Sequence record: PP895363.1
Strand: one strand, 5' to 3'
Length of the DNA: 64,000 nucleotides
Origin: Klebsiella phage FKP3
Shown piece by piece: positions 11,137 to 25,654 of the stretch. Each line of letters starts with the position of its first letter. The stretch's first letter is position 1. The notes below the pieces were generated by a model. It saw nothing but the letters and a program-made list of their open reading frames with translations, did not search any database and was not told where the DNA came from. Made by a program: the position numbers and the translations under genes.

Positions 11137-11276
11137 ATATTATTAATTGTCATCATGGAAACCGAAAATCCACGCCATATCAACTCGAAGTTAAAAATCC
11201 TTGACTTCGGCACCATCTGGTGCTGGCTAGGCACTACCTAGCAGGACAGTCACAAAATCGTGACGATGACAAAATT

Positions 11277-11354
11277 TGGTCTCCGTAGAAAGATTTGAAC
11301 TTTCGACCCCACCGCCCCAAACGGCATACTCTGACCAGGCTGAGCTACACGGAG
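11277..11354 (-). tRNA. tRNA-Pro (UGG)
   Basis: Acceptor CTCCGTG/TACGGAG-A-CCA, anticodon loop TTTGGGG, T-arm GAAAG-TTCAAAT-CTTTC. Confidence 0.6.
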
Positions 11355-11439
11355 ATAATACTTTCGAGGAGATCTCACCCTATACAGCAAAACCGTATAC
11401 TATCTGTCAGGGTTACTGTATACTGTGCTCCTCTGAATT

Positions 11440-11515
11440 TGGCTGGGGATCTTGGAATCGAACCAAGTCGATGACGAGTTCAAAGCCCGTCGCCTTCCCA
11501 TTTGGCTAATCCCCA
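11440..11515 (-). tRNA. tRNA-Gln (UUG)
   Basis: Acceptor TGGGGAT/ATCCCCA-G-CCA, anticodon loop CTTTGAA, T-arm CTTGG-TTCGATT-CCAAG. Confidence 0.6.
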
Positions 11516-11522
11516 ATTAAAC

Positions 11523-11611
11523 TGGTATAGTGGACGGGATTCGAACCCGCAAGGTAGTTTCCTACTCTAGATTGAAAGTCTAGCTACTTCGACCGATTTG
11601 TATACCACTAT
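11523..11611 (-). tRNA. class II (long variable arm, 3-bp D-stem) tRNA with an apparent UUC anticodon; non-canonical identity
   Basis: Acceptor ATAGTGG/CCACTAT-A-CCA perfect, anticodon stem-loop CTAGA-CTTTCAA-TCTAG, variable arm GTAG-GAAA-CTAC, T-arm GCGGG-TTCGAAT-CCCGT. Confidence 0.4.
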
Positions 11612-11730
11612 ATAAAATTATTTAAAAAGGAATGCTAGAACTTGAAGGAGAAAACCATGAGCGAAAAGAGAAAGTTTTCTAACATTCCTGTCTAAATAAT
11701 CTTGAAATAATCACTTTGTTCAAGAGTTGT

Positions 11731-11807
11731 TGGTGCGGGTGACAGGATTCGAACCTGCGACGAACTGGGTGGAAGCCAGACACTCTACCAGACTGAGTTA
11801 CACACGC
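11731..11807 (-). tRNA. tRNA-Gly (UCC)
   Basis: Acceptor GCGTGTG/CACCCGC-A-CCA (one mismatch), anticodon loop CTTCCAC, T-arm GCAGG-TTCGAAT-CCTGT. Confidence 0.5.
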
Positions 11808-11831
11808 ACTGATTAAGAACTCTACAATATT

Positions 11832-11861
11832 ACTCTACTACATTTTAATACTTATTGTCAA
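11832..11861 (-). promoter_or_regulatory. sigma70-like promoter on the minus strand (TTGACA-N18-TAGAGT) reading into the tRNA genes
   Basis: Minus-strand sequence TTGACAataagtattaaaatgtagTAGAGT. Confidence 0.35.
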
Positions 11862-12056
11862 GTGTTAATTTAAAATTGTGAGACAGTGACGGATATCTCA
11901 TAGATGACTAATCCTACGTCCGGCTTAAGCAAGGCGACGATATCGTACACCTTCTCGTCGATTGGCAGGAGCCGTTCCTCCTGAATTACTATCTAGCATC
12001 TGAGATGAAGACAGCCTCACCAATCAACCTACTCCCAGTCACGGTTTCAGAACTTC

Positions 12057-12132
12057 TGGTGCTCCAAGTAGGTTTCGAACCCACGACCCCATGCTTACAA
12101 GGCAAGTGCTCTACCAACTGAGCTATTGAAGC
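12057..12132 (-). tRNA. tRNA-Thr (UGU)
   Basis: Acceptor GCTTCAA/TTGGAGC-A-CCA, anticodon loop CTTGTAA (one U-U pair in the stem), T-arm GTGGG-TTCGAAA-CCTAC. Confidence 0.5.
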
Positions 12133-12349
12133 AAATAGTATTTTATTATTGAAAGGTATTCCACCATAATATCAAGGTTTGCCGATGCAGTAGTTCGGGA
12201 ACTAGACAATGCCGCTTACGCGCTGGTTATCTCAATTCAAACCCACTGCAAACCGTGGTAGTTGAGGCCAGTTTCTTTTCCACTTGTTTCCACTTATAAG
12301 TCTTAACCAGACCGGGATACGGGCTTATAAGATCATCAATAATAAAATT

Positions 12350-12434
12350 TGGCGATGGATCAAGGATTTGAACCTTGCTGGAGATTTCTCTCACGGATTA
12401 ACAGTCCGCCGCCCAACCACTAGGCCAATCCATC
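12350..12434 (-). tRNA. Ser-like class II tRNA (G73, 3-bp D-stem, long variable arm) with an apparent GUU (Asn-decoding) anticodon
   Basis: Acceptor GATGGAT/ATCCATC-G-CCA, anticodon stem-loop GCGGA-CTGTTAA-TCCGT, variable arm GAGA-GAAA-TCTC, T-arm CAAGG-TTCAAAT-CCTTG. Confidence 0.4.
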
Positions 12435-12511
12435 ATTATTCTTTGTTAAGAGTAGGCGCGTATTCCGTCGCCTCGTGTTATTTTCTCCTGTTTCCAGGCT
12501 CCCTTTAGAGC

Positions 12512-12587
12512 AGCGGGCAGGGAGAATCGAACTCCCTTAGCATCTTTCAGCAAACCCGAAGGTCATTGTCTAGCCACGACCACCCGC
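12512..12587 (-). tRNA. tRNA-like gene, fold unresolved (good T-arm; acceptor pairs via G-U; no clean anticodon arm found by eye)
   Basis: GGGAG-TTCGATT-CTCCC, 3' TGCCCGC-T without an encoded CCA, 5' GCGGGTG. Confidence 0.3.
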
Positions 12588-12624
12588 ACAGTTATGTGTA
12601 CCTCTAAAGCTCTCTTAACTAATC

Positions 12625-12708
12625 TGGTGTGGGTAGATGGATTCGAACCACCGCGCCTTTCGGATCTGATTTACAGTCAGGTGCATTCAGCCACTCTGCC
12701 ATACCCAC
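12625..12708 (-). tRNA. tRNA-Tyr (GUA), class II
   Basis: Acceptor GTGGGTA/TACCCAC-A-CCA, anticodon loop CTGTAAA, long variable arm, T-arm GGTGG-TTCGAAT-CCATC. Confidence 0.55.
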
Positions 12709-12782
12709 ATTATCTGGTGTGGTACTTGTTACTGATTCTTCTGACGATACAGATACCTCTCATATAACTTTCCCACATTATC

Positions 12783-12859
12783 TGGTACGCCGGAAAGGAT
12801 TCGAACCTTTATTCCTCTCGTTAAAAGCGAGATGCCTTATCCAGTTTAGCTACCGACGC
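12783..12859 (-). tRNA. tRNA-Lys (UUU)
   Basis: Acceptor GCGTCGG/CCGGCGT-A-CCA (G-U pairs), anticodon stem-loop TCTCG-CTTTTAA-CGAGA, T-arm AAAGG-TTCGAAT-CCTTT. Confidence 0.6.
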
Positions 12860-12967
12860 ATAAATATTTTTTAAGATAGCAACCGCTTAACGATTGCTAT
12901 AAGTTAAGGTTACTTTTAAACAATAAATCAATCACCAATAACATCCTTGCTATCTTAAAAAACACTT

Positions 12968-13053
12968 TGGCGGAAGAGGGGAGGGTTGAACTCCCACGCC
13001 CTTTCGGACGGCAGTTTAGCAAACTGCTATGGCTACCATTTCATCACTCTTCC
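12968..13053 (-). tRNA. tRNA-Ser (GCU), class II
   Basis: Acceptor GGAAGAG/CTCTTCC-G-CCA, anticodon stem-loop GCAGT-TTGCTAA-ACTGC, long variable arm, T-arm GGGAG-TTCAACC-CTCCC. Confidence 0.6.
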
Positions 13054-13057
13054 TAAA

Positions 13058-13507
13058 TTAATTTCCTTTCGTTCTGTATTTGATGGCTCTTTTTTCAGGA
13101 TCGTAGTTTTGTTTTCTTCTTTCCTGTTCGAGCAATCTTGCTTGTCTATATGCAACAGAACATTCTTCACAACGGCAACCTCTTTTTTGATACGCATAAC
13201 TTGTACCGTGAACGATAGGTTTTTCAACCCTGTTTATTACCGTCCCAGTTTCACTTACACGTCTTGCTGCCGCAGAGTTACAGCTATGATGGCTATAACT
13301 AATATTCTCTAACCCAAAGAACATCTTATCTGGTTCCTCTGAATATCTCCAAGGAACAATGTGTTCAATGCTATAATTGTCTTCGTTCATCTCTTTACCA
13401 CAATGGTAACAAGAAGTTCTTCCTGTCTCGACAATCATTTGCCACATGAGTTTTCTTATCAGAATGTTTCGCGCTTTTCCCATCGACATACCTAACTCGT
13501 CGCTCAC
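13058..13507 (-). CDS. HNH endonuclease embedded in the tRNA cluster
   Basis: Motifs CYHCGK...EHIVPW...HHSCN; likely GTG start at 13507 with SD AAGGAG (the ORF track extends to 13555, which overlaps the pseudo-tRNA). Confidence 0.55.
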   Translation of the reverse strand: MSDELGMSMGKARNILIRKLMWQMIVETGRTSCYHCGKEMNEDNYSIEHIVPWRYSEEPDKMFFGLENISYSHHSCNSAAARRVSETGTVINRVEKPIVHGTSYAYQKRGCRCEECSVAYRQARLLEQERRKQNYDPEKRAIKYRTKGN

Positions 13508-13526
13508 GATACACTCCTTATAAATT

Positions 13527-13605
13527 GGCGCGACTGACGATACTCGAACTCGCATTCTCTCCTGTGACAGGGGAGTACCATTACCTAGCCAGCCCCGCGA
13601 CTATA
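13527..13605 (-). pseudogene. degenerate tRNA-like element
   Basis: TTCGAGT T-loop motif and a 3' ...GTCGCG-CCA, but no complementary acceptor and the anticodon region forms a triloop hairpin. Confidence 0.2.
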
Positions 13606-13607
13606 AT

Positions 13608-13733
13608 TTATAAATCTGGTCGTTCATCTCTGTTAACTAAACGGATACCACCGTCAGATAAAACTTCAAGTTTTGAATATTGATAAACTACGACCTTGTT
13701 ATCACTCATTGTTACTCCGGTTAATACAAGCAT
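13608..13733 (-). CDS. small hypothetical protein, 41 aa
   Basis: SD AGGAGATTATAATG; MLVLTGVTMSDNKVVVYQYSKLEVLSDGGIRLVNRDERPDL. Confidence 0.3.
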   Translation of the reverse strand: MLVLTGVTMSDNKVVVYQYSKLEVLSDGGIRLVNRDERPDL

Positions 13734-13751
13734 TATAATCTCCTAAGTTTG

Positions 13752-13841
13752 TGGCGGAAGATAACGGAGTCGAACCATCACCATATCGCTACAGCGGGCT
13801 GGTTTTCAAGACCAGTTGCGTACCGCTACGCCCTATCTTCC
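13752..13841 (-). tRNA. tRNA-Ser (UGA), class II
   Basis: Acceptor GGAAGAT/ATCTTCC-G-CCA, anticodon stem-loop CTGGT-CTTGAAA-ACCAG, long variable arm. Confidence 0.55.
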
Positions 13842-13856
13842 ACATCTATACTTACT

Positions 13857-13886
13857 ACTCTATCATACTTTTCAATCAGTTGTCAA
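13857..13886 (-). promoter_or_regulatory. sigma70-like promoter on the minus strand (TTGACA-N18-TAGAGT)
   Basis: Minus-strand sequence TTGACAactgattgaaaagtatgaTAGAGT; the -35 hexamer also lies in an inverted repeat TTGTCAA...TTGACAA. Confidence 0.35.
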
Positions 13887-13917
13887 GAAAAACTTTCCAC
13901 CTTTTTTGACAATTATT

Positions 13918-13992
13918 TGGTAGAGCCACTAGGAATCGAACCTAGACTGTAGAGTTAGAAGCTCCATTTGCTATCCATTACAACATAGCTCC
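13918..13992 (-). tRNA. tRNA-Arg (UCU)
   Basis: Acceptor GGAGCTA/TGGCTCT-A-CCA (G-U pairs), anticodon stem-loop TGGAG-CTTCTAA-CTCTA, T-arm CTAGG-TTCGATT-CCTAG. Confidence 0.5.
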
Positions 13993-14006
13993 ATTTATTT
14001 AGGCCA

Positions 14007-14036
14007 ACTATAACACACACTATTCGTTATTGTCAA
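14007..14036 (-). promoter_or_regulatory. sigma70-like promoter on the minus strand (TTGACA-N18-TATAGT)
   Basis: Minus-strand sequence TTGACAataacgaatagtgtgtgtTATAGT. Confidence 0.4.
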
Positions 14037-14189
14037 GCTCTTTTTTAATTTCTTTTTTAGCTTTCTGACGTTCAGTAGCTTTACACACTTCTTGCCAAGA
14101 GTCGTACTCATCTCCTTTACGATAGCCACGGCTACGACAAAGAGAACATAGACAACCTTCTTGACTATATTTCAAACCATGAGGTTTCA
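14020..14189 (-). CDS. small Cys-rich protein, 56 aa
   Basis: SD AAGGAAACTC-ATG; MKPHGLKYSQEGCLCSLCRSRGY... Confidence 0.3.
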
Positions 14190-14198
14190 TGAGTTTCC

Positions 14199-14450
14199 TT
14201 AGATTATCAGAGTTTTAAACTTAATGCAAATGATTTTCTTCTTACCGCCTACATACTGCCAATGATGTATCTCCGCAGCTACTTCTAGGGAAGTTCCTAC
14301 TTCACGGTAGGCGTGAGTGATTACATCAATCCAGTATTCACAATCAGGCTGATAAATCATACTGTAGTGCTTATCAATCAACGTATTGATACCGCCGCAA
14401 TCTCCAATTGTCTTACGCCACGGTGTACTCTTCATAACAAACTTTTCCAA
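14199..14450 (-). CDS. hypothetical protein, 83 aa (may start at the internal ATG at 14436)
   Basis: ORF overlapping the upstream small ORF through an ATGA junction. Confidence 0.3.
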   Translation of the reverse strand: MEKFVMKSTPWRKTIGDCGGINTLIDKHYSMIYQPDCEYWIDVITHAYREVGTSLEVAAEIHHWQYVGGKKKIICIKFKTLII

Positions 14451-14572
14451 GTTTTATCAGGAATTTCTGATGGAGGAATCTTACCTTCTGTCTTGGCTTT
14501 ATCGTCTACTGCTTTTTTAATAGCTTGAACCTGTGCCTCGGTTAAAGGGCCATCATCTTTTTCGTATGCCAT
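14433..14572 (-). CDS. small hypothetical protein, 46 aa
   Basis: Strong SD TAGGAGAAATATA-ATG; MAYEKDDGPLTEAQVQAIKKAVDDKAK... Confidence 0.3.
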
Positions 14573-14787
14573 TATATTTCTCCTATTTATTATCAAAACA
14601 CATAAAGGAGGACAATGATCAGGTGACGTTTGCCAACGCCCTGCCGAAGTTTAGAGATGGTTGCAAATCATCCCCAACCGCATCACTGGTTTAAACTCAC
14701 ATGATCAGTGCTTGTTTCTGGATACTCACACGCCCATACGTGCAGACAGTTTTAACGCCAATCAATGCCTTTCTTTATATGTTCTGT

Positions 14788-14912
14788 ATGGTTGACTGCT
14801 ACAGGACTTGAACCTGTTTCTCTTCGCGCGGATTTACGTTGTACCAACATGTGAGGAATCGAACCTCTCCACTACCCTACCGAAGCGCATATACCTATCA
14901 TGCTCATACAGT
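14788..14912 (-). pseudogene. two adjacent degenerate tRNA-like remnants (T-arm-like motifs without full cloverleafs)
   Basis: ACAGG-TTCAAGT-CCTGT...CAACCA and GAGG-TTCGATT-CCTC; no complementary acceptors at the correct distance. Confidence 0.2.
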
Positions 14913-14914
14913 CA

Positions 14915-14990
14915 TTGGAGGATGATATGGGATTTTAACCCATCTAATACTGTTTTGCAGACAGTCTCCTAGACACTCGGACAATCATCC
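14915..14990 (-). tRNA. tRNA-Cys (GCA)
   Basis: Acceptor GGATGAT/ATCATCC-T-CCA, anticodon stem-loop ACTGT-CTGCAAA-ACAGT, T-arm ATGGG-TTAAAAT-CCCAT. Confidence 0.55.
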
Positions 14991-14999
14991 CATTGAAAA

Positions 15000-15077
15000 T
15001 GGTGTGACTGGTGGGGCATGATCCCACATCATCTCCTTCACAGGGAGAAACGTTAACCAGCTTACGCTCACAGTCAC
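15000..15077 (-). tRNA. tRNA-His (GUG) with an atypical T-loop (ATCATGC) and a G at position -1
   Basis: Acceptor GTGACTG/CAGTCAC-A-CCA, anticodon stem-loop TCTCC-CTGTGAA-GGAGA, T-stem GTGGG/CCCAC. Confidence 0.45.
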
Positions 15078-15285
15078 CATTGATTTTGCAGTTGCTATTC
15101 TCCTTAAACACCGCACATACGGTATTAAGCAGAATAACTTTCGTGCTGCTTCACGATGTGGAGTTCCCCACATTGAAGTTTGTTCACACTTGTCACAGTG
15201 CTTCTCTTCCGAGTAAACCACTCTCGTAGTTGCTGACAAACAACTCGTAAAATATATTCTCGTAAGAACATATATTGCGAGAGTT

Positions 15286-15426
15286 TGGCACCAGGAGGAG
15301 GAATCGAACACTCCTAATCAGGTCATGACTCCTGACTATCTCAAACCAAACACTGTTGTGTCGGCTATTGCATAATAGCGAGCGCTCACTCCTATGCAGA
15401 CCTTCACCAGTGTCGAGATCCTGGTA
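15286..15426 (-). other. about 140-nt tRNA-like element: complementary acceptor strands (ACCAGGA ... TCCTGGT-G-CCA) separated by about 125 nt, with a T-loop-like TGTTCGATTC and internal hairpins; possibly an interrupted or insert-containing tRNA
   Basis: Sequence inspection only; no canonical cloverleaf fits. Confidence 0.2.
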
Positions 15427-15431
15427 TTGTT

Positions 15432-15520
15432 TGGTGCGGGTAGTGGGAGTCGAACCCACAGGAGGAAACCCTCCGAGGGATTTTAAATCCCTTGCGTACT
15501 GCCAATACCGCCATACCCGC
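15432..15520 (-). tRNA. tRNA-Leu (UAA), class II
   Basis: Acceptor GCGGGTA/TACCCGC-A-CCA, anticodon stem-loop AGGGA-TTTAAAA-TCCCT, long variable arm, T-arm GTGGG-TTCGACT-CCCAC. Confidence 0.6.
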
Positions 15521-15531
15521 ATTAAATTTAG

Positions 15532-15606
15532 TGACCCCCGGAGGATTCGAACCTACCTACCTCTCGATTATGAGTCGATTGCTCATACCTAATGAGCTTG
15601 AGGGCC
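15532..15606 (-). tRNA. tRNA with CAU anticodon (Met, fMet or Ile2), no encoded CCA
   Basis: Acceptor GGCCCTC/GGGGGTC-A (G-U pairs), D-stem GCTC/GAGC, anticodon loop CTCATAA, T-loop TTCGAAT. Confidence 0.45.
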
Positions 15607-15652
15607 AAAGAAGTATTACTTTAACATAAAATAATACTTCGTGTCAACACTT

Positions 15653-15928
15653 TTAAGCGAAATTTTTAAATTCTTCATCATCCTTGCGGCTAAGAAGAGC
15701 ATAAATAAGTGCCAACACAGTTTCTTGACTACGAGGTAAACCCATCTCATCGAGAAGTAAATCTATGTTTAAAATCTCTTTATCTTTAGCTGCGTCTTCA
15801 CGCAGAAGCAATGAACCGTCTGCTTGCTCTACAAACATGCTTTCAGGATTAAAAATAAAAAATGTATTTTCATCTTGATCCGTAATCAAATGCTTAAGTA
15901 GTCCACTAACATCAATCTGCTCTTCCAT
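15653..15928 (-). CDS. hypothetical acidic protein, 91 aa
   Basis: ORF with SD GGAGGAGAAAATT upstream. Confidence 0.3.
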   Translation of the reverse strand: MEEQIDVSGLLKHLITDQDENTFFIFNPESMFVEQADGSLLLREDAAKDKEILNIDLLLDEMGLPRSQETVLALIYALLSRKDDEEFKNFA

Positions 15929-15980
15929 AATTTTCTCCTCTGTTTAGAATCTTATCAAAAGATTACAATGCTTGTCAATA

Positions 15981-16247
15981 CTAATTTGTATCTATTTCAT
16001 CATCACCATTTGACATAGTTAAAAATAAATCTGTAATACCTTGATGTTGATATGCCCTTTCGGGGCTATCATCAAATGCCAAGCCTGTACAAATTGAACA
16101 AAGATCTGATTCCTGGATAAGACCATTCTTATCTCGTTTGGAGTGATTCTTTAATAATCTATTACAGGCTCGACACCTAAAATAAAAGTTGTGTTGTTTC
16201 ATAAAACCTTCGTGAACCCGATAGGGTGATAATCGGCTTCTCCTCAC
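15981..16247 (-). CDS. hypothetical Zn-ribbon protein, 88 aa
   Basis: CRACN...CSIC cysteine pairs. Confidence 0.3.
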   Translation of the reverse strand: MRRSRLSPYRVHEGFMKQHNFYFRCRACNRLLKNHSKRDKNGLIQESDLCSICTGLAFDDSPERAYQHQGITDLFLTMSNGDDEIDTN

Positions 16248-16280
16248 TTTTATCTTAACACGAAGGTTTCATTTCGTCAA

Positions 16281-17999
16281 CTATTTCACTTCAATCAAAT
16301 GATTCATAACCTCTTTATCCAGACGAGCACGGATATCGTTGAAATCTTCATCACGACCGTTCACCTGGGGAATTAATACATTCCCGTTACGGAAGATGGG
16401 TTGAAGCAGGTTATCTTCATCATTAATCTCTTCAAACGAGATGTTATCCACTTGATGCAGGATACCATCTTTACGAACAACCTTGATGAATCCTTTCGCA
16501 GAGCGTTTACTTGGGTCTGTTTTCGGTTCTTTGCTCACCATGATTTCGTAATCGTCAATGAAGCAGCCAGTCGCTTTCACAGCCATACCAAAGGTATCAC
16601 GAGTGTTAAACTGATAGGTGAAGCTACCAACGCCGAATACGATGTTTGAAGAAGCAAAACCCTTTTCTTTGAGACGTTTAAGAATTTCGATCTCACGCTC
16701 AACAGTGATAGAATCCCCGTAAATCATGCCGATGTGAGTATCCAGCACTTTATAGCCTTTGCTGTTCACTTCACCACCAAAGATTTCCCACAATACTTGG
16801 ATGGAACCTACAGCCTCATGGCGTGGAATCTGTTGACATTCTGCGTCAATAACCCAAGTCTGAGTCGTTAATGAATAACGGGGTTCAAAATAACCATTTT
16901 TTGTACTAACCAAAAGGTCTTCAACTTCATATGGTTTAATGTTTTCCAGTTCTTCTTCACTAACAATGTTGTATCCCGCAACTACTTTAACCGGATCACC
17001 AGAATCAGGACGAACAACCAAACGACCATTACGCATCATGATTTCTTCTTTCAGTTCCGGCAGAATACGAGTGAGCACAGCCCAGTAATCGTAAGAGTCT
17101 GCAACATAAGAGCAGAAACCTTCCGGCACAATGTCTCGGATGAAAGTCAGAAGGAATTCCTTCTCAGCCAGATAACGGAGGCCATCTACATCACCTGCTA
17201 AGTGAGGGAAATGCTCTTCCAGATCTTTTACGATACGACTGATATTGGTAGTTGCAACAGAGTGTTCAGAAGCAGGGATACTACCAGCTACAAACTGATC
17301 ATCATCAATACCATAGTATTCGTGGACAGCTTCAATACCCAAGATGTTATCTGTACCAGTGAACGACGCTAGGTGAGCGATGCCACTCTTATACCCGTCT
17401 TCTACGGTGGACAAACCACGCAGACTGAAATCATGACACTGGAAGTTAACGTGATCCACGTTGTCACAGGTTGCCAGGGCGTAGGACATTGCCACACGCT
17501 TATACTGGAACGCAGCGGTTGCGTTGGTGATCGTTTTCCAGCTTTCGGTTGACATAAGTGTTTCGATGTAGTTAGTCACCCAGAAGAATTTCTCTACGGT
17601 GTTATGGATGGTATACACCGGAATACCAATCGGTGACAGAATACCTTCCGGCAGAGCGCGGATTTCAACTGGCAGATAACCCAGATCGTGAAGTTCACCC
17701 CAACATTCTGCTGATGGTGCAGCAGCGCCAAGTGCGTTTTTGGACATACGAGCAAATTTCTTCACAGCAGCTCCACGCTTCATCTTGAAGAATTTCTTCC
17801 ACATTCCAACCATTGAGTCCATTACCATGCGGCGCAGACCCAAGACAATAACGCCACGAGCATTCTTATCAGCGTAATGAGCAAAGTTTTTGTCATTACG
17901 TGGTGTCAGGTTAGAGAAGATTAGCTTTGTGTTCTGGTTGTACATCGGCTTGTGACCAGGTTTATACCAATCAGCAGCGAACGGTGCAAAAATTTCCAT
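16281..17999 (-). CDS. nicotinamide phosphoribosyltransferase-family protein (Nampt/NadV-like; candidate Namat of the NARP1 pathway)
   Basis: 572 aa; N-terminal DWYKPGHKPMY resembles the Nampt TDSYKxxH motif; paired with a Prs-like gene. Confidence 0.6.
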   Translation of the reverse strand: MEIFAPFAADWYKPGHKPMYNQNTKLIFSNLTPRNDKNFAHYADKNARGVIVLGLRRMVMDSMVGMWKKFFKMKRGAAVKKFARMSKNALGAAAPSAECWGELHDLGYLPVEIRALPEGILSPIGIPVYTIHNTVEKFFWVTNYIETLMSTESWKTITNATAAFQYKRVAMSYALATCDNVDHVNFQCHDFSLRGLSTVEDGYKSGIAHLASFTGTDNILGIEAVHEYYGIDDDQFVAGSIPASEHSVATTNISRIVKDLEEHFPHLAGDVDGLRYLAEKEFLLTFIRDIVPEGFCSYVADSYDYWAVLTRILPELKEEIMMRNGRLVVRPDSGDPVKVVAGYNIVSEEELENIKPYEVEDLLVSTKNGYFEPRYSLTTQTWVIDAECQQIPRHEAVGSIQVLWEIFGGEVNSKGYKVLDTHIGMIYGDSITVEREIEILKRLKEKGFASSNIVFGVGSFTYQFNTRDTFGMAVKATGCFIDDYEIMVSKEPKTDPSKRSAKGFIKVVRKDGILHQVDNISFEEINDEDNLLQPIFRNGNVLIPQVNGRDEDFNDIRARLDKEVMNHLIEVK

Positions 18000-18067
18000 T
18001 TGTTTCTCCTTTCTCTTGTTTGTTTCGATGGGAGAAGATTAATTCATCCTCTCCATAAAGTCAACAA

Positions 18068-18643
18068 TTATTCGACAGAATCTTCAACTTTTATACGCAA
18101 GAATGTACAACCTCTATGTGATCTACGTTTACCCAAGCAAACATCACTAACCAATCTAAAATCGAAACCAGCTTCTTCCAGCTCTTTGTTACCATTGCAG
18201 ATATGAATTATTTCATTCTCTGCACTTATTACAAAAGTCGTGTATAAAAGTCTTGCAGCCTTTCTACCAGTATGGATTGTTTTTAAACCAGTATCTATGG
18301 CATGTTTCTGATTTTCTTGGTTCGTTGACCATTCTAAGTTGTCCTTATGATTGTTCTCCTTATTACCATCCTTATGATTAACCTGTCTTTTGTTCATGGG
18401 GTTTGGTACAAAAGCCTCGGCAACTAATCTGTGAACTCTAAAGCGCTTTGACTTTCTGTTTACTGACAAATAAACATTCAAATACCCATACTTATCTCTT
18501 GAAGGTTGTAAAACACAACCTGTGTAGAGCAGAGGTTTGCCAGTATCACTACGGTATACTATACGATCAAGAGAACGGATAGTACCGTCATCACCTACTT
18601 CGTAGAACCCCTCATAGCCGGGAATAGCAACAAATTCTGTCAT
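18068..18643 (-). CDS. HNH homing endonuclease (HNH_3/NUMOD) inserted between the Nampt-like and Prs-like genes
   Basis: HRLVAEAFVPNP...VNHKDGNKENNHKDNLEW; paralogous to the intron-borne HNH at 5962-6660. Confidence 0.65.
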   Translation of the reverse strand: MTEFVAIPGYEGFYEVGDDGTIRSLDRIVYRSDTGKPLLYTGCVLQPSRDKYGYLNVYLSVNRKSKRFRVHRLVAEAFVPNPMNKRQVNHKDGNKENNHKDNLEWSTNQENQKHAIDTGLKTIHTGRKAARLLYTTFVISAENEIIHICNGNKELEEAGFDFRLVSDVCLGKRRSHRGCTFLRIKVEDSVE

Positions 18644-19566
18644 TTAACTATTAACTTCTGTAGCATTTCTTGGTTCTCCACTAAAATACCTTTGGTATTA
18701 CGACCATGTATGTTATTTCCCCAAGCATTAAAACAATGAATGGAGTCTATGATGCCATCAAAAATATCTATTCCTTTACCAAAGATGCCGTGTGTCACAT
18801 ACAGTTCTACACGCCCTGCATTTCTCTCCTTAAGAAGTTTACCTAATGCAAGGAATGTTCCACCGTTATCACAAATATCGTCCACAATCATAAGGTTTGC
18901 ACCGTGGAAGTCTTGCACACTGATATCTGTGCGAATGATGTCTCCAGTCGCCGTATCACGAATCTTATCTGCACAATGTACAGGAAGCTCCATACGTTTA
19001 GCCAGTTTGAAGATTTTCTTCAACGCTCCACCATCTGGGCTAACCAACTCAAAATTCTCCATACGTAGTTTCCATTTTAAAACATGGAAAGCAATCTCAT
19101 CTTGAGAAATGGCATCCAGATTGGTAATCACTGCTGGTGTCACTTCACTGTGTGGGTCAGCCACCAATACACGAGAGAACTCCAAGATGTTTAGAAGACG
19201 AGCAAACGACTTAACACCAAACGCCTCACCTTTCTCGCAGTAACGATCTTGTCGTGCATACGGAACGTATAGGGAAAACAGTTCAATTGGTTTTGGATTG
19301 AATCGTAAGATTTCGTCCAAAGCATCCTTCACCATTACCACAGCCATAAAATCATCTGAGGAACGGATATCTTGGTGAACTTCTACTTTTTGAATAGTAG
19401 TTAAGTCAATGAAAGAATATTTGAAAGCCTCCATATCAATCTTCACATGCACTTCACCACCGGAGAAGGTGAACACCTTTACTGAAATATCATTATCGTG
19501 ACCCCACTGGTCAATAACATTAATCTTCATCTTCTTCCTCCGATTCTTCCATTGCTTCAATTTCAC
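18640..19566 (-). CDS. ribose-phosphate pyrophosphokinase-family protein (Prs-like; candidate Adps of NARP1)
   Basis: PYARQDR, VADPHSE and MIVDDICDNGGT motifs of PRPP synthetase. Confidence 0.6.
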   Translation of the reverse strand: MKLKQWKNRRKKMKINVIDQWGHDNDISVKVFTFSGGEVHVKIDMEAFKYSFIDLTTIQKVEVHQDIRSSDDFMAVVMVKDALDEILRFNPKPIELFSLYVPYARQDRYCEKGEAFGVKSFARLLNILEFSRVLVADPHSEVTPAVITNLDAISQDEIAFHVLKWKLRMENFELVSPDGGALKKIFKLAKRMELPVHCADKIRDTATGDIIRTDISVQDFHGANLMIVDDICDNGGTFLALGKLLKERNAGRVELYVTHGIFGKGIDIFDGIIDSIHCFNAWGNNIHGRNTKGILVENQEMLQKLIVK

Positions 19567-19771
19567 TCAGACGATCAAGGATTGCCTCAGCCTGTTCCCA
19601 GAAAGCATCATAGGCTCTACGCTCACGTGGGGATAGCTGTGAAGGTGTGAAATCATCTTCATACATCTTGTTGATGATATCTTGCATATCATTCGATGTG
19701 TTCTCGAACATACAATAACTCATGTTTGGCATATCTTTCTCCTTCTTTAGTTGATAGACGCTAGTGTACAT
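19520..19771 (-). CDS. hypothetical acidic protein, 83 aa
   Basis: First gene of the minus-strand operon, next to the divergent AT-rich region. Confidence 0.3.
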   Translation of the reverse strand: MYTSVYQLKKEKDMPNMSYCMFENTSNDMQDIINKMYEDDFTPSQLSPRERRAYDAFWEQAEAILDRLSEIEAMEESEEEDED

Positions 19772-19779
19772 AGCTAGAC

Positions 19780-20020
19780 ACCATAGGTCAATAGTTATTT
19801 ATAAATTAATAATTAATTAATAGTAAATTAATTATTGATTATATAATCTACTTATACTATAGTACTGTCATTGAGTAACATAACAGATCTATGATACTCT
19901 GTACAATACATATAGTATATACACATAACAAACACTAGAATCTCCCCTCGCTTCGCTCGGCGAACTTCGTGTTTAGGGTAGCATATATAAAAACAAAAGT
20001 CAATACTGCAAAGGAGAAAA
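19780..20020. promoter_or_regulatory. AT-rich divergent intergenic region with TAATTAA-type repeats (likely divergent promoters)
   Basis: taaattaataattaattaatagtaaattaattattgattatataatc; separates the minus-strand and plus-strand gene blocks. Confidence 0.35.
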
Positions 20021-20161
20021 ATGAAAATTAATTTAGACCAAGTAAAAGACCTCACACCTAAGTATAAGAGAGGTGGTGCATCACGCCGTAGAACGCTCCG
20101 TGAGGGCATTGACAAGCCACGGCTAGTGGTTTATCATCCAGAGAAAGAAAACGGCTCATAA
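20021..20161 (+). CDS. small basic protein, 46 aa
   Basis: SD AAAGGAGAAAA-ATG; MKINLDQVKDLTPKYKRGGASRRRTLREG... Confidence 0.35.
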   Translation: MKINLDQVKDLTPKYKRGGASRRRTLREGIDKPRLVVYHPEKENGS

Positions 20162-20179
20162 CGCGATACAGGAGGTCTG

Positions 20180-20482
20180 ATGGACTTTACACATACAACT
20201 TTGATAGGAGAGCTTCGCGGATTCTATAACGGTGAAGCTTTCTGTGCTGCTTTCCATGACGATGATATGTCGGTGGAATGGAAGCAATTGGAGTTTATCT
20301 TAGAAAAAGCAAATACAATGCTTGACTTCGACCACGTAGAGTGGTACGTTGGTAACTCTGTTAAGGTAGTTGGTTTGGATCGTAATCAGATCATCGACCT
20401 TGATTGCAAATTAATCAACTTCCAATTTGGGAACAAAATTCCCTTGGAACGACAACTACAACTTGTTTGTGAGGAGAAATGA
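20180..20482 (+). CDS. hypothetical protein, 100 aa
   Basis: ORF with SD CAGGAGG. Confidence 0.35.
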   Translation: MDFTHTTLIGELRGFYNGEAFCAAFHDDDMSVEWKQLEFILEKANTMLDFDHVEWYVGNSVKVVGLDRNQIIDLDCKLINFQFGNKIPLERQLQLVCEEK

Positions 20483-21123: not shown

Positions 21124-21400
21124 GCGAGCATCACCATCTGCACCGAAACCTAAGTTTGACACGGAGGCATTTGTCTTTGACACACCGATTGAGAAGATTG
21201 AAGAGGCGCTCCAACGCTTTGAAGAGCAGGAGGCAGATCCTATGGCTGAACCTCTCACGCAGGATCAACTCTACTGGTGGGGATGGTGGGAATTGCACAT
21301 GCCAGAGGCAAAAAGACGTGGCATGACTACAGTTCCAATCTGTGCGAAAGAATCTGCGGTATTGGGACTTTATGAGAAACCGAGAGGCAGGAAGAAATGA
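21077..21400 (+). CDS. hypothetical basic protein, 107 aa (GTG start)
   Basis: GTG start preceded by GGAGGTG; N-terminus Lys/Ala/Pro-rich. Confidence 0.3.
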   Translation: MAKTPKKQSARKPATKRASPSAPKPKFDTEAFVFDTPIEKIEEALQRFEEQEADPMAEPLTQDQLYWWGWWELHMPEAKRRGMTTVPICAKESAVLGLYEKPRGRKK

Positions 21401-22068
21401 GGCTAGTTCATGGCATAGGTATAAATGATGCAGATCATAGAATAACCGTAAATGAGATGATAGGTGGCAAATTAAAACAAACTTGGATTTGTCCTTACTA
21501 CTCAACTTGGAAAGGTATTTTAATGCGCACAAAAGAATCATTTTGGTTAAAGAATCCTACCTATCATGGGTGTAAAATAAATAAAGACTGGTTAAGATTT
21601 TCTAACTTCGAAACCTGGCTAAAGGAACAACCTAGCCATGCCGAGTGGTTAGCCAATCCTAAAGATTGGGCGGTGGATAAAGATTTTGTATTCCCTGGAA
21701 ATAAGACTTATTCCGCAGAAACTTGTTGCCTTTTGCCGCGCTATGTGAATAATGCACTCTTAGATAGTTCCTCTATTCGTGGAGAGTATCCGCTTGGTGT
21801 TTCTTATCACAAGCAACATAAAAAATTATACAGCTCTATAAAGATAGAGGGTAAACAACATTTCCTTGGCTTACATTCTGATACTAAAGAAGCTCATAAG
21901 GCTTGGCAAGTAGCTAAGATAGACGCGCTGAAAGGTATCCTTACAAGATACAGAAAGGAGAATCATTATGATACTCGTATTTGTCTAAGATTGTTGGATG
22001 AAATTTACTTAATTGAAGAGGATGTTAAGAATGCAAGAGAAACAAAAAGGTTTGGTCGTATGGCTTGA
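21397..22068 (+). CDS. AP2-domain DNA-binding protein (homing-endonuclease-associated type), paralogue of 54778-55428
   Basis: PLGVSYHKQHKKLYSSIKIEGKQHFLGLHSDTKEAHKAWQVAK is an AP2-like fold; CxYxxW...NPTYxxC...WLRFSNF is shared with the paralogue. Confidence 0.45.
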   Translation: MRLVHGIGINDADHRITVNEMIGGKLKQTWICPYYSTWKGILMRTKESFWLKNPTYHGCKINKDWLRFSNFETWLKEQPSHAEWLANPKDWAVDKDFVFPGNKTYSAETCCLLPRYVNNALLDSSSIRGEYPLGVSYHKQHKKLYSSIKIEGKQHFLGLHSDTKEAHKAWQVAKIDALKGILTRYRKENHYDTRICLRLLDEIYLIEEDVKNARETKRFGRMA

Positions 22069-22393
22069 TGATTTACGTGATCCTAAAGACTACGGCTACC
22101 CAGAGGCTATCTGGGTTAAATCCGCACAAGAGATCTGGAGCTTGTATCTCACTCTTCAGGTGAGGAGCATGACGAACGAAGTGACAGAAATGCACTTTGA
22201 TAATGACCTCGGTACTGGAGCAGATGGGTATTACGTATTCACCAGACTGGAGAGCATGATTGCTGCGGGAGGTTTTAAAGGTTTGCAGACCATCTATGTG
22301 CATACATCCAATCCGGCGGCTGCACAGAAGTTCATGCTGGCAAAGGAGCATCTTGCTAGTTACGGTATCGAACTGATTCGTAAACACTATTGA
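22031..22393 (+). CDS. hypothetical protein (about 120 aa)
   Basis: ORF 22013..22393 in the track; the internal ATG at 22031 avoids the overlap. Confidence 0.3.
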   Translation: MQEKQKGLVVWLDDLRDPKDYGYPEAIWVKSAQEIWSLYLTLQVRSMTNEVTEMHFDNDLGTGADGYYVFTRLESMIAAGGFKGLQTIYVHTSNPAAAQKFMLAKEHLASYGIELIRKHY

Positions 22394-22403
22394 GGAACCA
22401 AAC

Positions 22404-22535
22404 ATGTACGTTATCTGGGTAGATGAAGGTGATGGGTGGTATATCTATAAAGAAACAAATCATTGGCCTGATGTGCAGAAAGCCCTTGACTGTTTCGATT
22501 ATTGTTACTATGATTCACACTTTGAAGACGAATAG
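22404..22535 (+). CDS. small hypothetical protein, 43 aa
   Basis: SD AGGAACCAAAC-ATG. Confidence 0.25.
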   Translation: MYVIWVDEGDGWYIYKETNHWPDVQKALDCFDYCYYDSHFEDE

Positions 22536-22549
22536 ACAGGAGAAATAAC

Positions 22550-22717
22550 ATGTGGAATAAACCAGCACAAGGTCAACTTCCTTACCCACATCAGGTGGTG
22601 ATTGCCATTACACCAGAAGGAAAAGAAGCGGAGATGTATCGTATTGGTAATCTTTGGTTCCCTGTCGGTGACACATGTTATGTCTACTGGACACCTGAAA
22701 TGTGGAGGGCTAAGTGA
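22550..22717 (+). CDS. small hypothetical protein, 55 aa
   Basis: SD AGGAGAAATAAC-ATG. Confidence 0.3.
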   Translation: MWNKPAQGQLPYPHQVVIAITPEGKEAEMYRIGNLWFPVGDTCYVYWTPEMWRAK

Positions 22718-23064
22718 AGGATAATATTTGCTACCAACATCTCTATTGGATACATGATGAAGAGACTTACACACAACGTGTCATTGTATGTGCGGCTAAC
22801 AAATACACCCTGACAACTGGGGAAGAACTGGTCGTACCATGTGTCAGACACGCAAATCCGGTATTATCACAACAGATAAAGGTGTTGATGGATACTGGAT
22901 TGTTGGCTAAGTCCTATTGTCATCCAGATGATCAAGGGTTTATTGACCAATACTATAATTGGTGGAATCGTGCAGATGCATTTATTATTGCAGATCATGC
23001 TAATCAAATTGATTATGACAGAAATGGTCATTATCGTGAGTTATTTAGTGAGGGGCTATATTAA
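22714..23064 (+). CDS. hypothetical protein, 116 aa
   Basis: ATGA overlap. Confidence 0.3.
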   Translation: MKDNICYQHLYWIHDEETYTQRVIVCAANKYTLTTGEELVVPCVRHANPVLSQQIKVLMDTGLLAKSYCHPDDQGFIDQYYNWWNRADAFIIADHANQIDYDRNGHYRELFSEGLY

Positions 23065-23555
23065 TGAGAGATATTCTTACAGAACTTGGAGTAAACCACT
23101 GTAGTCATAAGCTTGAAGATGACTGGTTAGATTTTTATGCTCTTAATTACGCTCAAGCACGTAAGAGCTTTAGTGAAGCTTTATCTCATGTTCAAGAATT
23201 ATTTGATGTAAAAGAAGATGAGGTATTGGCTAAAACATACACAATCAGTTCTTATGATTACACTAACCCTGAGTTTATGTTAAAATTTTGGAGAGATGTT
23301 AATCAGTTCATTAAAGAAAATACATCAAAGGATTGGAGTTTTTCCTGTATTACTGTTGAAGATACTGAAAAATTCCTAGACCAATATGATGACTTTGGTG
23401 AAGATTGTAAAGAAATTAGTGTTTATGCTTATGTTAAAAGCTTTGACCAGTTTACATCACAAGAGCAAAAAGATGCAATCAATACAATGAGGTATTATGA
23501 GATGAAGCTGAAAGAAGCAAAAGAAAATTTAGATCGCTATAAAAAAGGTGTTTAA
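23064..23555 (+). CDS. hypothetical protein, 163 aa
   Basis: ORF. Confidence 0.3.
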   Translation: MRDILTELGVNHCSHKLEDDWLDFYALNYAQARKSFSEALSHVQELFDVKEDEVLAKTYTISSYDYTNPEFMLKFWRDVNQFIKENTSKDWSFSCITVEDTEKFLDQYDDFGEDCKEISVYAYVKSFDQFTSQEQKDAINTMRYYEMKLKEAKENLDRYKKGV

Positions 23556-24105
23556 CATGTATTTAACTTCAGACCTGCATTTCATGCATAAACGTATTAG
23601 GGAGTTTGCTCCTAGTTTTAGACCGTGGGAAACTCTGGAAGAAATGACAGAGGCTCTTATTACAGCTTGGAACGAAAAAGCAAAAACACCGGGCACAAAA
23701 ATGTATCATCTTGGGGATTTCTGTTTTAGTACGCCAGAAGAAACAGATTTCATTGCTTCCCGTTTAAACGGCGACATTACCTTCATCGTTGGGAACCATG
23801 ACTACTCAAAACACCGCGAAGTTCTTGAAAAGTATGGTGAAGTGAAGTATTATGAAGAGGTGAAGTATAAAAAGAAATTTTTTGTTCTTTTTCACTATCC
23901 TGTTGCATCATGGAATAAACAAGGCCGTGGTTCATTTCATTTACATGGCCACTCACATGGTAGTTTCCCGGATGAAGCTTACGGTAGGATGTTAGATGTT
24001 GGTTGGGATGCTCACGGAAAGATCTTGCATTTTGACGAAGTGATTGAAATTCTAGAGGGTAGGGAAGTTAAGGTCATTGACCATCATAAGATTATTAAGG
24101 GATAA
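23548..24105 (+). CDS. calcineurin-like metallophosphoesterase (possible 2',3'/3'-phosphatase of an RNA-repair set)
   Basis: GDFCF...GNHDY...GHSHG phosphoesterase motifs; immediately upstream of the RNA ligase and kinase genes. Confidence 0.45.
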   Translation: MFNMYLTSDLHFMHKRIREFAPSFRPWETLEEMTEALITAWNEKAKTPGTKMYHLGDFCFSTPEETDFIASRLNGDITFIVGNHDYSKHREVLEKYGEVKYYEEVKYKKKFFVLFHYPVASWNKQGRGSFHLHGHSHGSFPDEAYGRMLDVGWDAHGKILHFDEVIEILEGREVKVIDHHKIIKG

Positions 24106-24322
24106 TATGAAGTATATTACAGCGTTGCTCCTACTCATATCTTTCCAAGTTTTAGCAGATGAAAACTCTAAAGATGTATTTTTGTTTATACCTAAAACTG
24201 ATGAAATCTTTGAGGTTAAAACTTACGATGGAAAACAGTTATGGTGTTATGTCTCTGATAAGTTAATCACGAGATTGACTATAAAATGTTTTGATAAAAA
24301 CTTTGATAAGGAAAGGAAATGA
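24077..24322 (+). CDS. small secreted/membrane protein
   Basis: MKYITALLLLISFQVLADE signal-like N-terminus. Confidence 0.3.
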   Translation: MTIIRLLRDNMKYITALLLLISFQVLADENSKDVFLFIPKTDEIFEVKTYDGKQLWCYVSDKLITRLTIKCFDKNFDKERK

Positions 24323-25242
24323 AATTTAATGTCGATGACTTGGTAGCTAAAAAGTTAGTCACGAAAAAGACTTATACCGAAGGCCCGTTCGCGGGTCTGT
24401 CTGTGCTGAAGTATAAGAACAATGTGTTCTGGGATAACCTCTGGCATACAGATCCTCGTCTACTGGAATGCCGTGGGATGGTTGTTGATGCAGAAGATAA
24501 CGTTGTGATCTGGCCTTTCACAAAGATTTTCAACCGTTTTGAGAATGGAACAAACTTACCACTTGATCAGCAGGTTGTGTGCGTTCGTAAAGTTAATGGC
24601 TTTATGGCAACTGCTGCGGTACGTGGTGAAAAACTTCTTGTGTCAACAACAGGAACCTTGGATTCCGAGTTCTCCACTCTTGCACGGAAACATCTTGACG
24701 AACTTAAGTTTGACCGTGTGGCGTTTCCAGAGAATTTCACATTTATCTTTGAAATCTGTGATAGGAGTGATCCGCACATCGTAGCTGAGGAAGAAGGGGC
24801 ATATCTTATTGGTGTCCGTGACCTTGCTTTGAACGGTGTTATGGTGGAAGAACATAAGCTTGATCGTATTGCTGAGGTTATTGGCGCAAAGCGACCTACA
24901 TGGGGTGTTGTTCCTTTTGGTGATGTGGTCTATAATGTCCAGCATGTCCAGCATGAGGGTTATGTCATCCGTAATATCGGAACAGATGAAGAAAACAGCG
25001 AACTTCTTATGAAAATCAAATCTCCACATTACTTGGCGAAAAAATTCCTGATGCGCGGAGGGGATAATAAATGGGATATGATTTGGGATAATCCACAAGA
25101 AGCAAGGAAACGTATTGACGAGGAATACTATTCACTGTTAGAGTGGCTACGTTTCGCTTTTGAAAAAGAAGAATGGAAATCTTTAGATTCCCAAGCCCGA
25201 AGAGAGAAAATCGAAACTTACTTTGAGAGAGGAGAAGGATGA
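24319..25242 (+). CDS. RNA ligase-like nucleotidyltransferase (putative)
   Basis: 307 aa; KVNGF nucleotidyltransferase motif I-like; followed by a P-loop kinase, as in T4 rnlA/pseT. Confidence 0.4.
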   Translation: MKFNVDDLVAKKLVTKKTYTEGPFAGLSVLKYKNNVFWDNLWHTDPRLLECRGMVVDAEDNVVIWPFTKIFNRFENGTNLPLDQQVVCVRKVNGFMATAAVRGEKLLVSTTGTLDSEFSTLARKHLDELKFDRVAFPENFTFIFEICDRSDPHIVAEEEGAYLIGVRDLALNGVMVEEHKLDRIAEVIGAKRPTWGVVPFGDVVYNVQHVQHEGYVIRNIGTDEENSELLMKIKSPHYLAKKFLMRGGDNKWDMIWDNPQEARKRIDEEYYSLLEWLRFAFEKEEWKSLDSQARREKIETYFERGEG

Positions 25243-25643: not shown

Positions 25644-25654
25644 GAGGAATAATA

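Follow-up and report, generated by a model that had tools for sequence, protein, structure and literature searches.

The 64,000-nt stretch of Klebsiella phage FKP3 that was analyzed here (sequence record PP895363.1; hereafter, the window) carries at positions 16281 to 19566 a minus-strand locus that very probably is a counter-defence operon of the NAD+ reconstitution pathway 1 (NARP1) type, consisting of the genes for Adps and Namat with a gene for a free-standing homing endonuclease located between them. The analysis directly shows the gene content, the family signatures, a mosaic tract with its breakpoint, and the recurrence of the endonuclease gene at this location. At the sequence level, the membership of the gene pair in NARP1 is accepted with high confidence; the enzyme activities and the counter-defence phenotype of the operon we infer from homology. 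Calling of open reading frames (ORFs) on the window yielded three intact minus-strand ORFs encoding a Prs-like protein, a NUMOD4 and HNH_3 protein, and a Nampt-like protein, with exactly the coordinates given in an initial annotation that had been made from the letters of the window. The features of the locus are the following.

18640 to 19530, minus strand: adps, predicted Prs-like ADP-ribose pyrophosphokinase, 296 aa from the ATG at 19530
18640 to 18867, minus strand: mosaic 3' end of adps, probably imported, codons 222 to 296 and the stop codon
18856 to 18882, minus strand: PP-loop codons DDICDNGGT, translation checked
18068 to 18643, minus strand: HNH gene, NUMOD4, HNH_3 and a presumed C-terminal DNA-binding module, 191 aa, 576 bp
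18073 to 18666: segment without a counterpart in the closest genomes, delimited by BLAST breakpoints
18000 to 18067, minus strand: 68-nt spacer upstream of namat with an AAGGAG ribosome-binding site (RBS)
16281 to 17999, minus strand: namat, predicted Nampt-like nicotinamide ADP-ribose transferase, 572 aa
16596 to 16628, minus strand: selectivity clamp helix codons GSFTYQFNTRD in namat, translation checked
19520 to 19771, minus strand: small ORF upstream of adps, 83 aa, phrog_26791, overlapping the adps start by 11 nt

The region is 96–98% identical to the Klebsiella phages KP2025, phi1_175008 and KP13-26, which have genomes of about 149 kb, and about 75% identical to Justusliebigvirus coliphages. 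phi1_175008 is classified in Stephanstirmvirinae, and FKP3 is a Klebsiella phage of this subfamily. The initial annotation assigned the Prs-like gene a length of 308 aa. Such a gene is indeed present on the minus strand, but 308 aa is the length of the longest ORF, which begins with the GTG at 19566. The true start of adps is probably the ATG at 19530, because a GGAGG motif is located 8–9 nt upstream of it, all homologues start there, and the relatives are annotated with 297 aa.

The Adps assignment was addressed with profiles, a tree, and individual residues. The protein contains the Pribosyltran, Pribosyl_synth and Pribosyltran_N domains (Pfam), matches phrog_619 with 281 bits, and remains below every NCBIfam cutoff for Prs (TIGR01251, a score of 106 versus a cutoff of 113; PRK01259, 89 versus 297). 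In the comparison with the Adps family that had been set beforehand, a profile built from the Adps of Bas63, ICP1 and FADO, all three with experimental support, gave the window protein 199.5 bits, versus 57.8 bits for a profile of gammaproteobacterial Prs; E. coli Prs, the opposite control, reached 84 bits with the Adps profile and 675 bits with the Prs profile. Phage Adps and Prs were split in 191 of the 200 bootstrap replicates of a neighbour-joining (NJ) tree, the outgroup panel of which contained gammaproteobacterial Prs only; the other 9 replicates probably failed on saturated distances. The window Adps is 59% identical to the orthologue of phage alia, 40% identical to ICP1 Adps, and 34% identical to Bas63 gp79. 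The residues of ICP1 Adps that are common to the validated Adps are all kept (F22, R93, H127, D166, K189 and D217-D218-I219-C220-D221 in the numbering of the window protein), and T225 and F226 are also conserved between these two proteins. The catalytic β-hairpin lysine is K189 in the window and K185 in ICP1; the acceptor-site residues R87, H121, D161, D212, D213 and D216 of ICP1 align with R93, H127, D166, D217, D218 and D221, and the adenine-contacting aromatic residue F18 aligns with F22. The position of another adenine contact of ICP1, F92, is occupied by Cys in the window, phi1_175008 and alia. This site is not conserved even among validated Adps, because it is Met in Bas63 (as in BIS47) and Ser in FADO.

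The Nampt-like protein belongs to the NAPRTase family (PF04095, E = 1.3e-38) and matches PRK09198 of NCBIfam (450 bits, cutoff 405) and phrog_448 (608 bits). A selectivity clamp helix (SCH) motif, GS-X-Φ1-X-Φ2-X-Φ3-TRD, occurs only in Namat, where the aromatic residues at its X positions stack against the adenine moiety of ADP-ribose pyrophosphate (ADPR-PP; PMC12774641, 2026). In the window protein, this motif reads GSFTYQFNTRD, with both aromatic residues present, and in SpβL1 Namat GSFTYQYNTRD, as compared to GAQTYQRNTRD in PDB 9ke8 and GGALLQKVDRD in Xanthomonas Nampt. Over its full length, the protein scores 390 bits against PDB 9w5x/9w5w, which we take to be SpβL1 Namat chains because the numbering fits the published SpβL1 structure, versus 177 bits against human Nampt, so that the comparison with canonical Nampt came out, in motif and in score, on the side of Namat. 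The motifs HDFSLRG, FTGTD, ASEHS, RPDSGD and IYGDS align with the residues of the SpβL1 catalytic core, that is, F189/R192, D215, the catalytic His, R306/D308 and G360-D361 (PMC12774641). Identity amounts to 38% with Bas63 gp80, 74% with alia, and 98–99% with the nearest Klebsiella phages. A selectivity-clamp loop (SCL) supplies a further stacking residue, and its third residue is Arg, Lys or Tyr (PMC12774641); the SCL of the window, PRNDKNFAHYADKNARG, has Lys as the third residue, as in PRSDKW of Bas63, followed by Asn-Phe instead of Trp, and is longer. The window protein has two insertions relative to the 491-aa SpβL1 protein, at residues ~253–285 and ~345–397, and shares them with the Namat of Bas63 (593 aa) and alia (577 aa).

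The gene order is also that of NARP1: adps precedes namat in the same orientation, an arrangement shared by 79 of the 80 IMG/VR loci with Adps relatives. The orthologues from alia and JohannJBalmer already appear in the tables of Osterman et al. (2024), the first protein of the pair under Prs/Adps homologues that have Namat nearby and the second as an "Adps-associated" Namat. According to the same study, NARP1 is present in about 4.3% of phage genomes, and its deletion made Bas63 (the gp79-gp80 operon) sensitive to SIR2-HerA and FADO sensitive to DSR2. In FKP3, the pathway would operate when an NAD+-depleting defence, such as Thoeris type I, DSR1/2, SIR2-HerA or a similar system, splits NAD+ into ADP-ribose (ADPR) and nicotinamide. 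By homology, Adps would then move the β,γ-pyrophosphate of ATP onto ADPR to yield ADPR-PP, and Namat would join ADPR-PP and nicotinamide, so that NAD+ would be regenerated.

The same two protein families could also serve classical pyridine salvage, either NARP2-like or as auxiliary metabolism, in which the Prs-like protein would make phosphoribosyl pyrophosphate (PRPP), the Nampt-like protein would make nicotinamide mononucleotide (NMN), and an Nmnat of the host or the phage would finish NAD+. The public annotations, "ribose-phosphate pyrophosphokinase" and "nicotinamide phosphoribosyltransferase", are worded in this sense, Namat enzymes keep some PRPP-dependent NMN synthesis in vitro (PMC12774641), and a NadR-like gene adjoins the gene pair of FBKp34, a related Klebsiella phage. 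We nevertheless regard salvage as very unlikely, given the Namat-specific SCH motif with both of its aromatic residues and the lead of the Adps profile by about 140 bits in a protein that stays under the Prs family cutoffs. Furthermore, SpβL1 Adps yielded no measurable product when tested for Prs activity with ribose-5-phosphate and ATP, and in the published survey, Nampt homologues from phages without Adps fall into a clade of their own (Osterman et al., 2024). A tblastn search of the 64-kb window with the NadR-like protein of FBKp34 as the query detected no NadR or Nmnat homologue (best E = 2.4) and thus no partner gene of the NatV/NadR type in the window. With an Adps partner present and no NadR-like gene within the window, the locus differs from NARP2, which combines Nmnat, NatV or NadR with a Nampt in the absence of Adps; NARP3 is not applicable, being an unrelated system of NadR and PnuC. 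Thus, the initial choice of NARP1 over NadV/Prs salvage stands, with a Prs homologue that is set apart from housekeeping Prs in both the profile and NJ analyses and a Nampt homologue that is Namat-like. In FBKp34, the NadR-like protein (Nmnat plus ribosylnicotinamide kinase; L010, 111–1157) adjoins an adps-HNH-namat cluster, and this phage may combine NARP1 with a NARP3-like route.

A Sir2-family gene, which the initial annotation had mentioned together with the gene pair, is present at 55425–56237 on the plus strand (PF02146, 78 bits). It encodes a CobB-like sirtuin deacylase, with 1s5p as the top match in the PDB (E = 8e-18) and a score of 336 bits for phrog_2162. It was considered and rejected as a NARP1 partner or defence gene, as it is located 36 kb away and is not a defence NADase of the ThsA/DSR type, and it is no evidence for or against NARP1. 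Being a sirtuin, it would be an NAD+ consumer in a phage that would also rebuild NAD+.

The HNH gene had been described as inserted exactly between the two genes and as disrupting the pair. It is indeed located between them, but not in a clean gap, because its ATG overlaps the TGA of adps in the configuration ATGA (18640–18643), by which the adps stop and the HNH start are coupled. The operon is interrupted by the HNH gene, but it is not inactivated, because both ORFs are of full length and have kept their catalytic residues and RBSs. Neither adps nor namat contains a frameshift or an internal stop, namat retains its AAGGAG RBS and a conserved 68-nt leader, and no terminator-like site was predicted on the minus strand between 15500 and 20300. 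Judged by these features, both NARP1 genes look functional.

An alternative is that the insertion damaged NARP1 and left a decaying remnant, either through an altered PP loop in the imported 3' end of adps or through a polar effect of the HNH gene on namat. Donor ATP is bound by the PP loop, which in the window reads CDNGGT, whereas most homologues have CDGGRT; compared to the consensus found in 45 of 70 alleles, the loop is changed at G222N and R224G, while C220, D221 and T225 are kept. In addition, namat is located ~641–644 bp from the adps stop codon, with the HNH gene between. In ICP1 Adps, structures of which have been solved with ADPR/ATP bound and with product bound, the donor ATP is bound by the PP loop C215–S220, and the ATP phosphate contacts at three loop positions are made by backbone amides (PMC13586617). 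Loops of the xGGT type exist elsewhere (YGGT within SSYGGT in FADO, NGGT in the IMG/VR locus L064), and both the active ICP1 Adps, with CDGAAS, and the FADO Adps, validated in vivo, indicate that the varied loop positions tolerate change. Because of the YGGT and GAAS precedents and the contacts via backbone amides, the window Adps is expected to stay active despite its NGGT loop. As to polarity, namat has its own RBS, is 98–99% identical to its relatives, and is preceded by no predicted minus-strand terminator, and the adps-HNH-namat arrangement is maintained in seven or more distinct groups of phages. Damage to the operon is therefore unlikely in our view, and an interrupted but intact NARP1 is the reading that we retain.

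The inserted ORF has Pfam matches to NUMOD4 (3.2e-08) and HNH_3 (4.1e-10), and its product matches I-HmuI, an HNH nicking homing endonuclease of SPO1 (PDB 1u3e), over the full length (E = 1.6e-15; residues 4–181 versus 3–168). It has the parts of an I-HmuI-like enzyme, with an N-terminal NUMOD4 motif, a ββα-metal HNH motif with catalytic His/Asn, and a C-terminal module of the helix-turn-helix type that presumably binds DNA. The catalytic residues H71, N89-H90, D92, N97, N102, N111 and H114 do not vary within the clade of endonucleases found at this gene junction. By these attributes, the HNH protein is probably a free-standing, I-HmuI-like homing endonuclease and, accordingly, a putative selfish element and not a component of the pathway. 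An intron-encoded endonuclease was excluded, as there is no intron between this ORF and the adps stop codon, with which it overlaps, and Rfam detects none in 15500–20300.

The HNH gene is missing from genomes that are 96–98% identical. In phi1_175008 and KP2025, the slot between adps and namat holds an ORF of 67 codons, orf67 (5572–5775 in L001, from phi1_175008, and 5548–5751 in L002), and in alia it is an empty 71-bp spacer. A decayed HNH gene was rejected as an explanation of orf67, which has no BLAST similarity to HNH and no match in any Pfam or PHROG family; it could be a NARP1 accessory or anti-defence gene. In BLAST comparisons, homology to phi1_175008 and KP2025 breaks at 18072/18073, directly beside the HNH stop codon, as well as at 18666/18667, and the cassette 18073–18666 replaces a 242-bp segment of the relatives that comprises the 67-aa ORF and the last adps codons. 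The flanks of the cassette are asymmetric. On the namat side, the identity to the relatives is about 100% up to the break at 18072. On the adps side, the 3' end of the gene (18640–18867) has 78 mismatches in 228 nt (34%) compared to both nearest genomes, versus 14 in 663 nt (2.1%) in the rest of adps (Fisher p = 5e-37), and the maximum-likelihood breakpoint is position 18867, at codon 222, inside the PP loop (DDICD|NGGT). At the protein level, Adps residues 1–206 are 97% and residues 207–296 are 66% identical to phi1_175008, and for the 3' part it is the version of the relatives, not that of the window, that resembles the outgroup alia. Because of this sharp, asymmetric mosaic tract and the alia-like version in the relatives, the HNH gene probably arrived by recombination with a diverged, unsampled donor phage and brought its own 228-bp adps 3' end, which was probably co-converted together with it; the HNH protein may be active in homing. 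At the DNA level, no phage record covers at least 80% of a 661-bp HNH cassette query, and a tblastn search with the C-terminal 90 aa of Adps retrieved nothing closer than the phage's own relatives (66%). The IMG/VR locus L064, which has the closest HNH protein (60% aa identity) and a DDICDNGGT loop, was rejected as the donor.

Three further HNH genes bring the number in the 64 kb to four. The one at 21397–22068 (plus strand; phrog_953, 247 bits) is, like the junction HNH gene, peculiar to this phage: homology to phi1_175008/KP2025 stops at 21396 and resumes at 22045–22061, replacing 148–461 bp. Of the other two, at 13058–13555 and 5962–6660 (both minus strand), one is located within a tRNA array (phrog_23251), and the other has an HNH_3 core 38% identical to that of the junction HNH.

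Several unrelated phages have a full-length homologue of the junction HNH (41–60% identical) placed between their adps and namat genes, namely Klebsiella FBKp34, Pseudoalteromonas H101, Alteromonas PT11-V22, Erwinia Omen, and the Pectobacterium Certreviruses phiTE, CB7 and DU_PP_I. Salmonella SeKF_13 fits this pattern as judged from the namat annotation under its HNH match, and three IMG/VR contigs also have the HNH gene at the junction. When the C-terminal module of the protein, which presumably binds DNA, is searched alone, no more than 18 phage records out of 50,697 match. All 15 matches with at least 90% coverage abut adps, 14 of them in the junction, while in Aeromonas ZPAH1 the HNH gene is located just upstream of adps and not in the junction; the three weak, partial matches are not at adps. 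A search of IMG/VR with the whole HNH protein added no members of the clade: the 41 loci retrieved have just the generic catalytic half in common with it, and, as a negative control, not one of them is near NARP1. Altogether, this HNH lineage is found almost only at the adps-namat junction, in several phage lineages. In the literature searched, no paper linking HNH endonucleases with NARP1 was found; where the three genes are listed in genome papers, they are not commented on. In the Certreviruses (phiTE, L012 3551–5945; CB7, L058; DU_PP_I, L059), a second HNH gene splits namat into ORFs of ~278 and ~332 aa.

The junction is not reserved for this lineage. The slot is occupied in about 35 of 79 IMG/VR loci and is a general cargo hotspot; published cargos are the Adpp macro-domain phosphatase and RyDEP. 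Non-nuclease cargo is present in L068, L069, L073, L076, L080, L085, L090, L093, L094, L104 and L118. The types of cargo include HAD-like proteins (DxDxT motif), proteins that are macro-like by sequence motif and escape Pfam detection, an AAA ATPase, a nucleoside 2-deoxyribosyltransferase-like protein (Nuc_deoxyri_tr2, PF15891, 108 bits), and a conserved family of 175–177 aa that has no Pfam match. These varied ORFs are candidates for further NARP1 extensions. For a macro-domain gene (Adpp), which in NARP1-AP is located within two genes of NARP1, no Pfam or PHROG match was obtained in the flanking or slot ORFs, whereas the original survey used the more sensitive HHpred. Endonucleases of two other families, HNH_3+AP2 and GIY-YIG+NUMOD3, occupy the slot at L129 4588–5166 and L138 4341–5267, and therefore the junction attracts selfish nucleases of independent origin.

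The functional accessory genes known from this slot raise the question of whether the HNH gene has itself been domesticated as a NARP1 accessory, similar to Adpp or RyDEP, and is kept for a benefit such as the superinfection exclusion of competitors or the amplification of the locus. Indeed, the HNH clade, including its DNA-binding module, is conserved under apparent purifying selection, and the T-even homing endonuclease SegB has been reported to promote the amplification of anti-defence loci (PMC13096335). Yet, the domains of the protein are purely those of a homing endonuclease, with the full-length match to I-HmuI and without any domain of nucleotide metabolism; it is distributed patchily, being present in some and missing from other near-identical genomes; the mosaic tract is a signature of homing; and the two other endonuclease families in the slot elsewhere are unrelated. 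We therefore consider domestication improbable and prefer the interpretation of the gene as a selfish homing endonuclease.

A possible target of this endonuclease is suggested by the PP-loop substitutions in HNH-plus alleles together with the position of the breakpoint. The exact sequence DDICDGGRT is present in 45 of the 70 Adps alleles without an adjacent HNH gene, but in none of the 9 independent HNH-plus alleles (Fisher p = 2.5e-4). In each of four close sister pairs, the HNH-minus member keeps DDICDGGRT and the HNH-plus member is substituted: DDICDNGGT in the window versus phi1_175008, DDIADGAFT in FBKp34 versus BIS47, DDLLDGGRT in phiTE versus L110, and DDICDRGRT in L097 versus L084. From this pattern, we infer that the endonuclease may nick or cut HNH-less adps in or near the PP-loop codons and that HNH-carrying alleles may be protected by their substitutions. 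The more far-reaching proposal, that an HNH lineage specialized on NARP1 recognizes the DNA encoding DDICDGGRT, homes together with a resistant adps 3' end, shuffles alleles across phage families, and forces substitutions in a catalytic loop, is put forward tentatively, with its chances somewhat short of even. The tail motif GRN..GI of Adps, present in five independent HNH-plus alleles, was also considered as a possible marker for the mobile cassette, but the tail of the HNH-minus L110 is near-identical, and this post hoc observation is suggestive only.

Several points weigh against the interpretation developed here. The activities and the anti-defence role would rest on 34–40% identity to tested proteins. 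The CDNGGT loop differs from the usual CDGGRT, and the activity of Adps may be reduced. In Namat, the SCL is longer than that of SpβL1 and has no assigned adenine-stacking residue. The HNH gene has no obvious Shine-Dalgarno motif of its own, and its expression is only putative. The DNA and tblastn searches found no donor genome, and the DNA of the best candidate, L064, is only 64–68% identical. Finally, the contrast between 0 of 9 and 45 of 70 alleles is not fully independent phylogenetically, and the crossover in the DDICD codons could reflect nothing but recombination that resolves in the most conserved stretch.

The neighbourhood of the operon, with a tRNA array downstream and divergent early genes upstream, is common to the window and its Stephanstirmvirinae relatives. 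The array, at 9481–15606 on the minus strand, comprises 23 tRNA genes and directly follows the NARP1 transcription unit. The 83-aa ORF upstream of adps and its 11-nt overlap with the adps start are also present in close relatives, and this ORF is probably the first gene of the leftward adps transcription unit. About 2.5 kb from adps, an RNA-repair-like cluster extends over 22013–27589 on the opposite (plus) strand.

22013 to 22393, plus strand: protein with a cREC_REC "cyclic-phosphate processing" domain (Pfam)
23548 to 24105, plus strand: calcineurin-like phosphoesterase
24319 to 25242, plus strand: T4-type RNA ligase
25239 to 25643, plus strand: AAA_33 kinase
26471 to 27589, plus strand: ATP-dependent ligase

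In phi1_175008, the orthologue of the first of these genes is labelled "nudix hydrolase", which is unsupported, as Pfam gives cREC_REC. That this protein might act on ADPR-cyclic-phosphate, a decay product of ADPR-PP, is pure speculation.

The operon adds one member to the already described NARP1, and homologues in related coliphages are already listed. The gene pair is thus not new biology, but it helps to predict which Klebsiella phages used in therapy might escape NAD+ depletion of the SIR2, TIR or DSR type. The association of the endonuclease with NARP1 and the PP-loop pattern, both absent from the initial annotation, are the only parts that a specialist might not expect. If confirmed, they would provide a clear natural example of a homing endonuclease that drives mosaicism within an anti-defence operon, a pair of cleavable and resistant adps alleles ready for experiments, and a case of a selfish element that shapes the evolution, and perhaps the activity, of the anti-immunity enzyme Adps.

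Compared to the NARP1 systems of Bas63 (JohannRWettstein gp79-gp80), SpβL1, FADO and ICP1 (Osterman et al., 2024; Namat structure, PMC12774641; Adps structure, PMC13586617), the FKP3 locus is likewise phage-borne, with adps upstream of namat on the same strand, and its predicted proteins share the SCH motif and the catalytic core of Namat as well as the catalytic Lys, the DDICD loop and the ADPR-contact residues of Adps. It differs from the tested systems in that its proteins are only 34–40% identical to theirs, an HNH gene of 576 bp stands between the two genes in place of 33–45 bp, the PP loop is CDNGGT instead of CDGGRT or CDGAAS, and Namat has 572 aa with two insertions, unlike the 491-aa SpβL1 protein. 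The locus and its neighbourhood are orthologous to those of phi1_175008, KP2025, KP13-26, alia and JohannJBalmer, but the window has the HNH gene and a foreign adps 3' end where its Klebsiella relatives have orf67 and alia has the 71-bp spacer. A third gene between or beside adps and namat is also known from NARP1-AP (Adps-Adpp-Namat, Vibrio phage Gary) and from the NARP1 of mycobacteriophage DyoEdafos with RyDEP; in contrast to these, the cargo in FKP3 is a nuclease without a predicted ADPR-related role and without a Macro or RyR domain match in Pfam and PHROG. The HNH protein matches I-HmuI (PDB 1u3e) in fold and architecture over the full length but, unlike I-HmuI, is not intron-encoded (no Rfam intron). 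Its presence/absence polymorphism in close relatives and the co-conversion-like replacement of its flank are features shared with the free-standing HNH genes of T-even phages. The arrangement of a small HNH gene between two functionally linked genes resembles that of T4 MobE between nrdA and nrdB ("intronless homing", PMC2790892), with the differences that the FKP3 gene is located in a counter-defence operon, not at a replication or nucleotide-reductase gene, and that its cleavage activity and cleavage site are putative.

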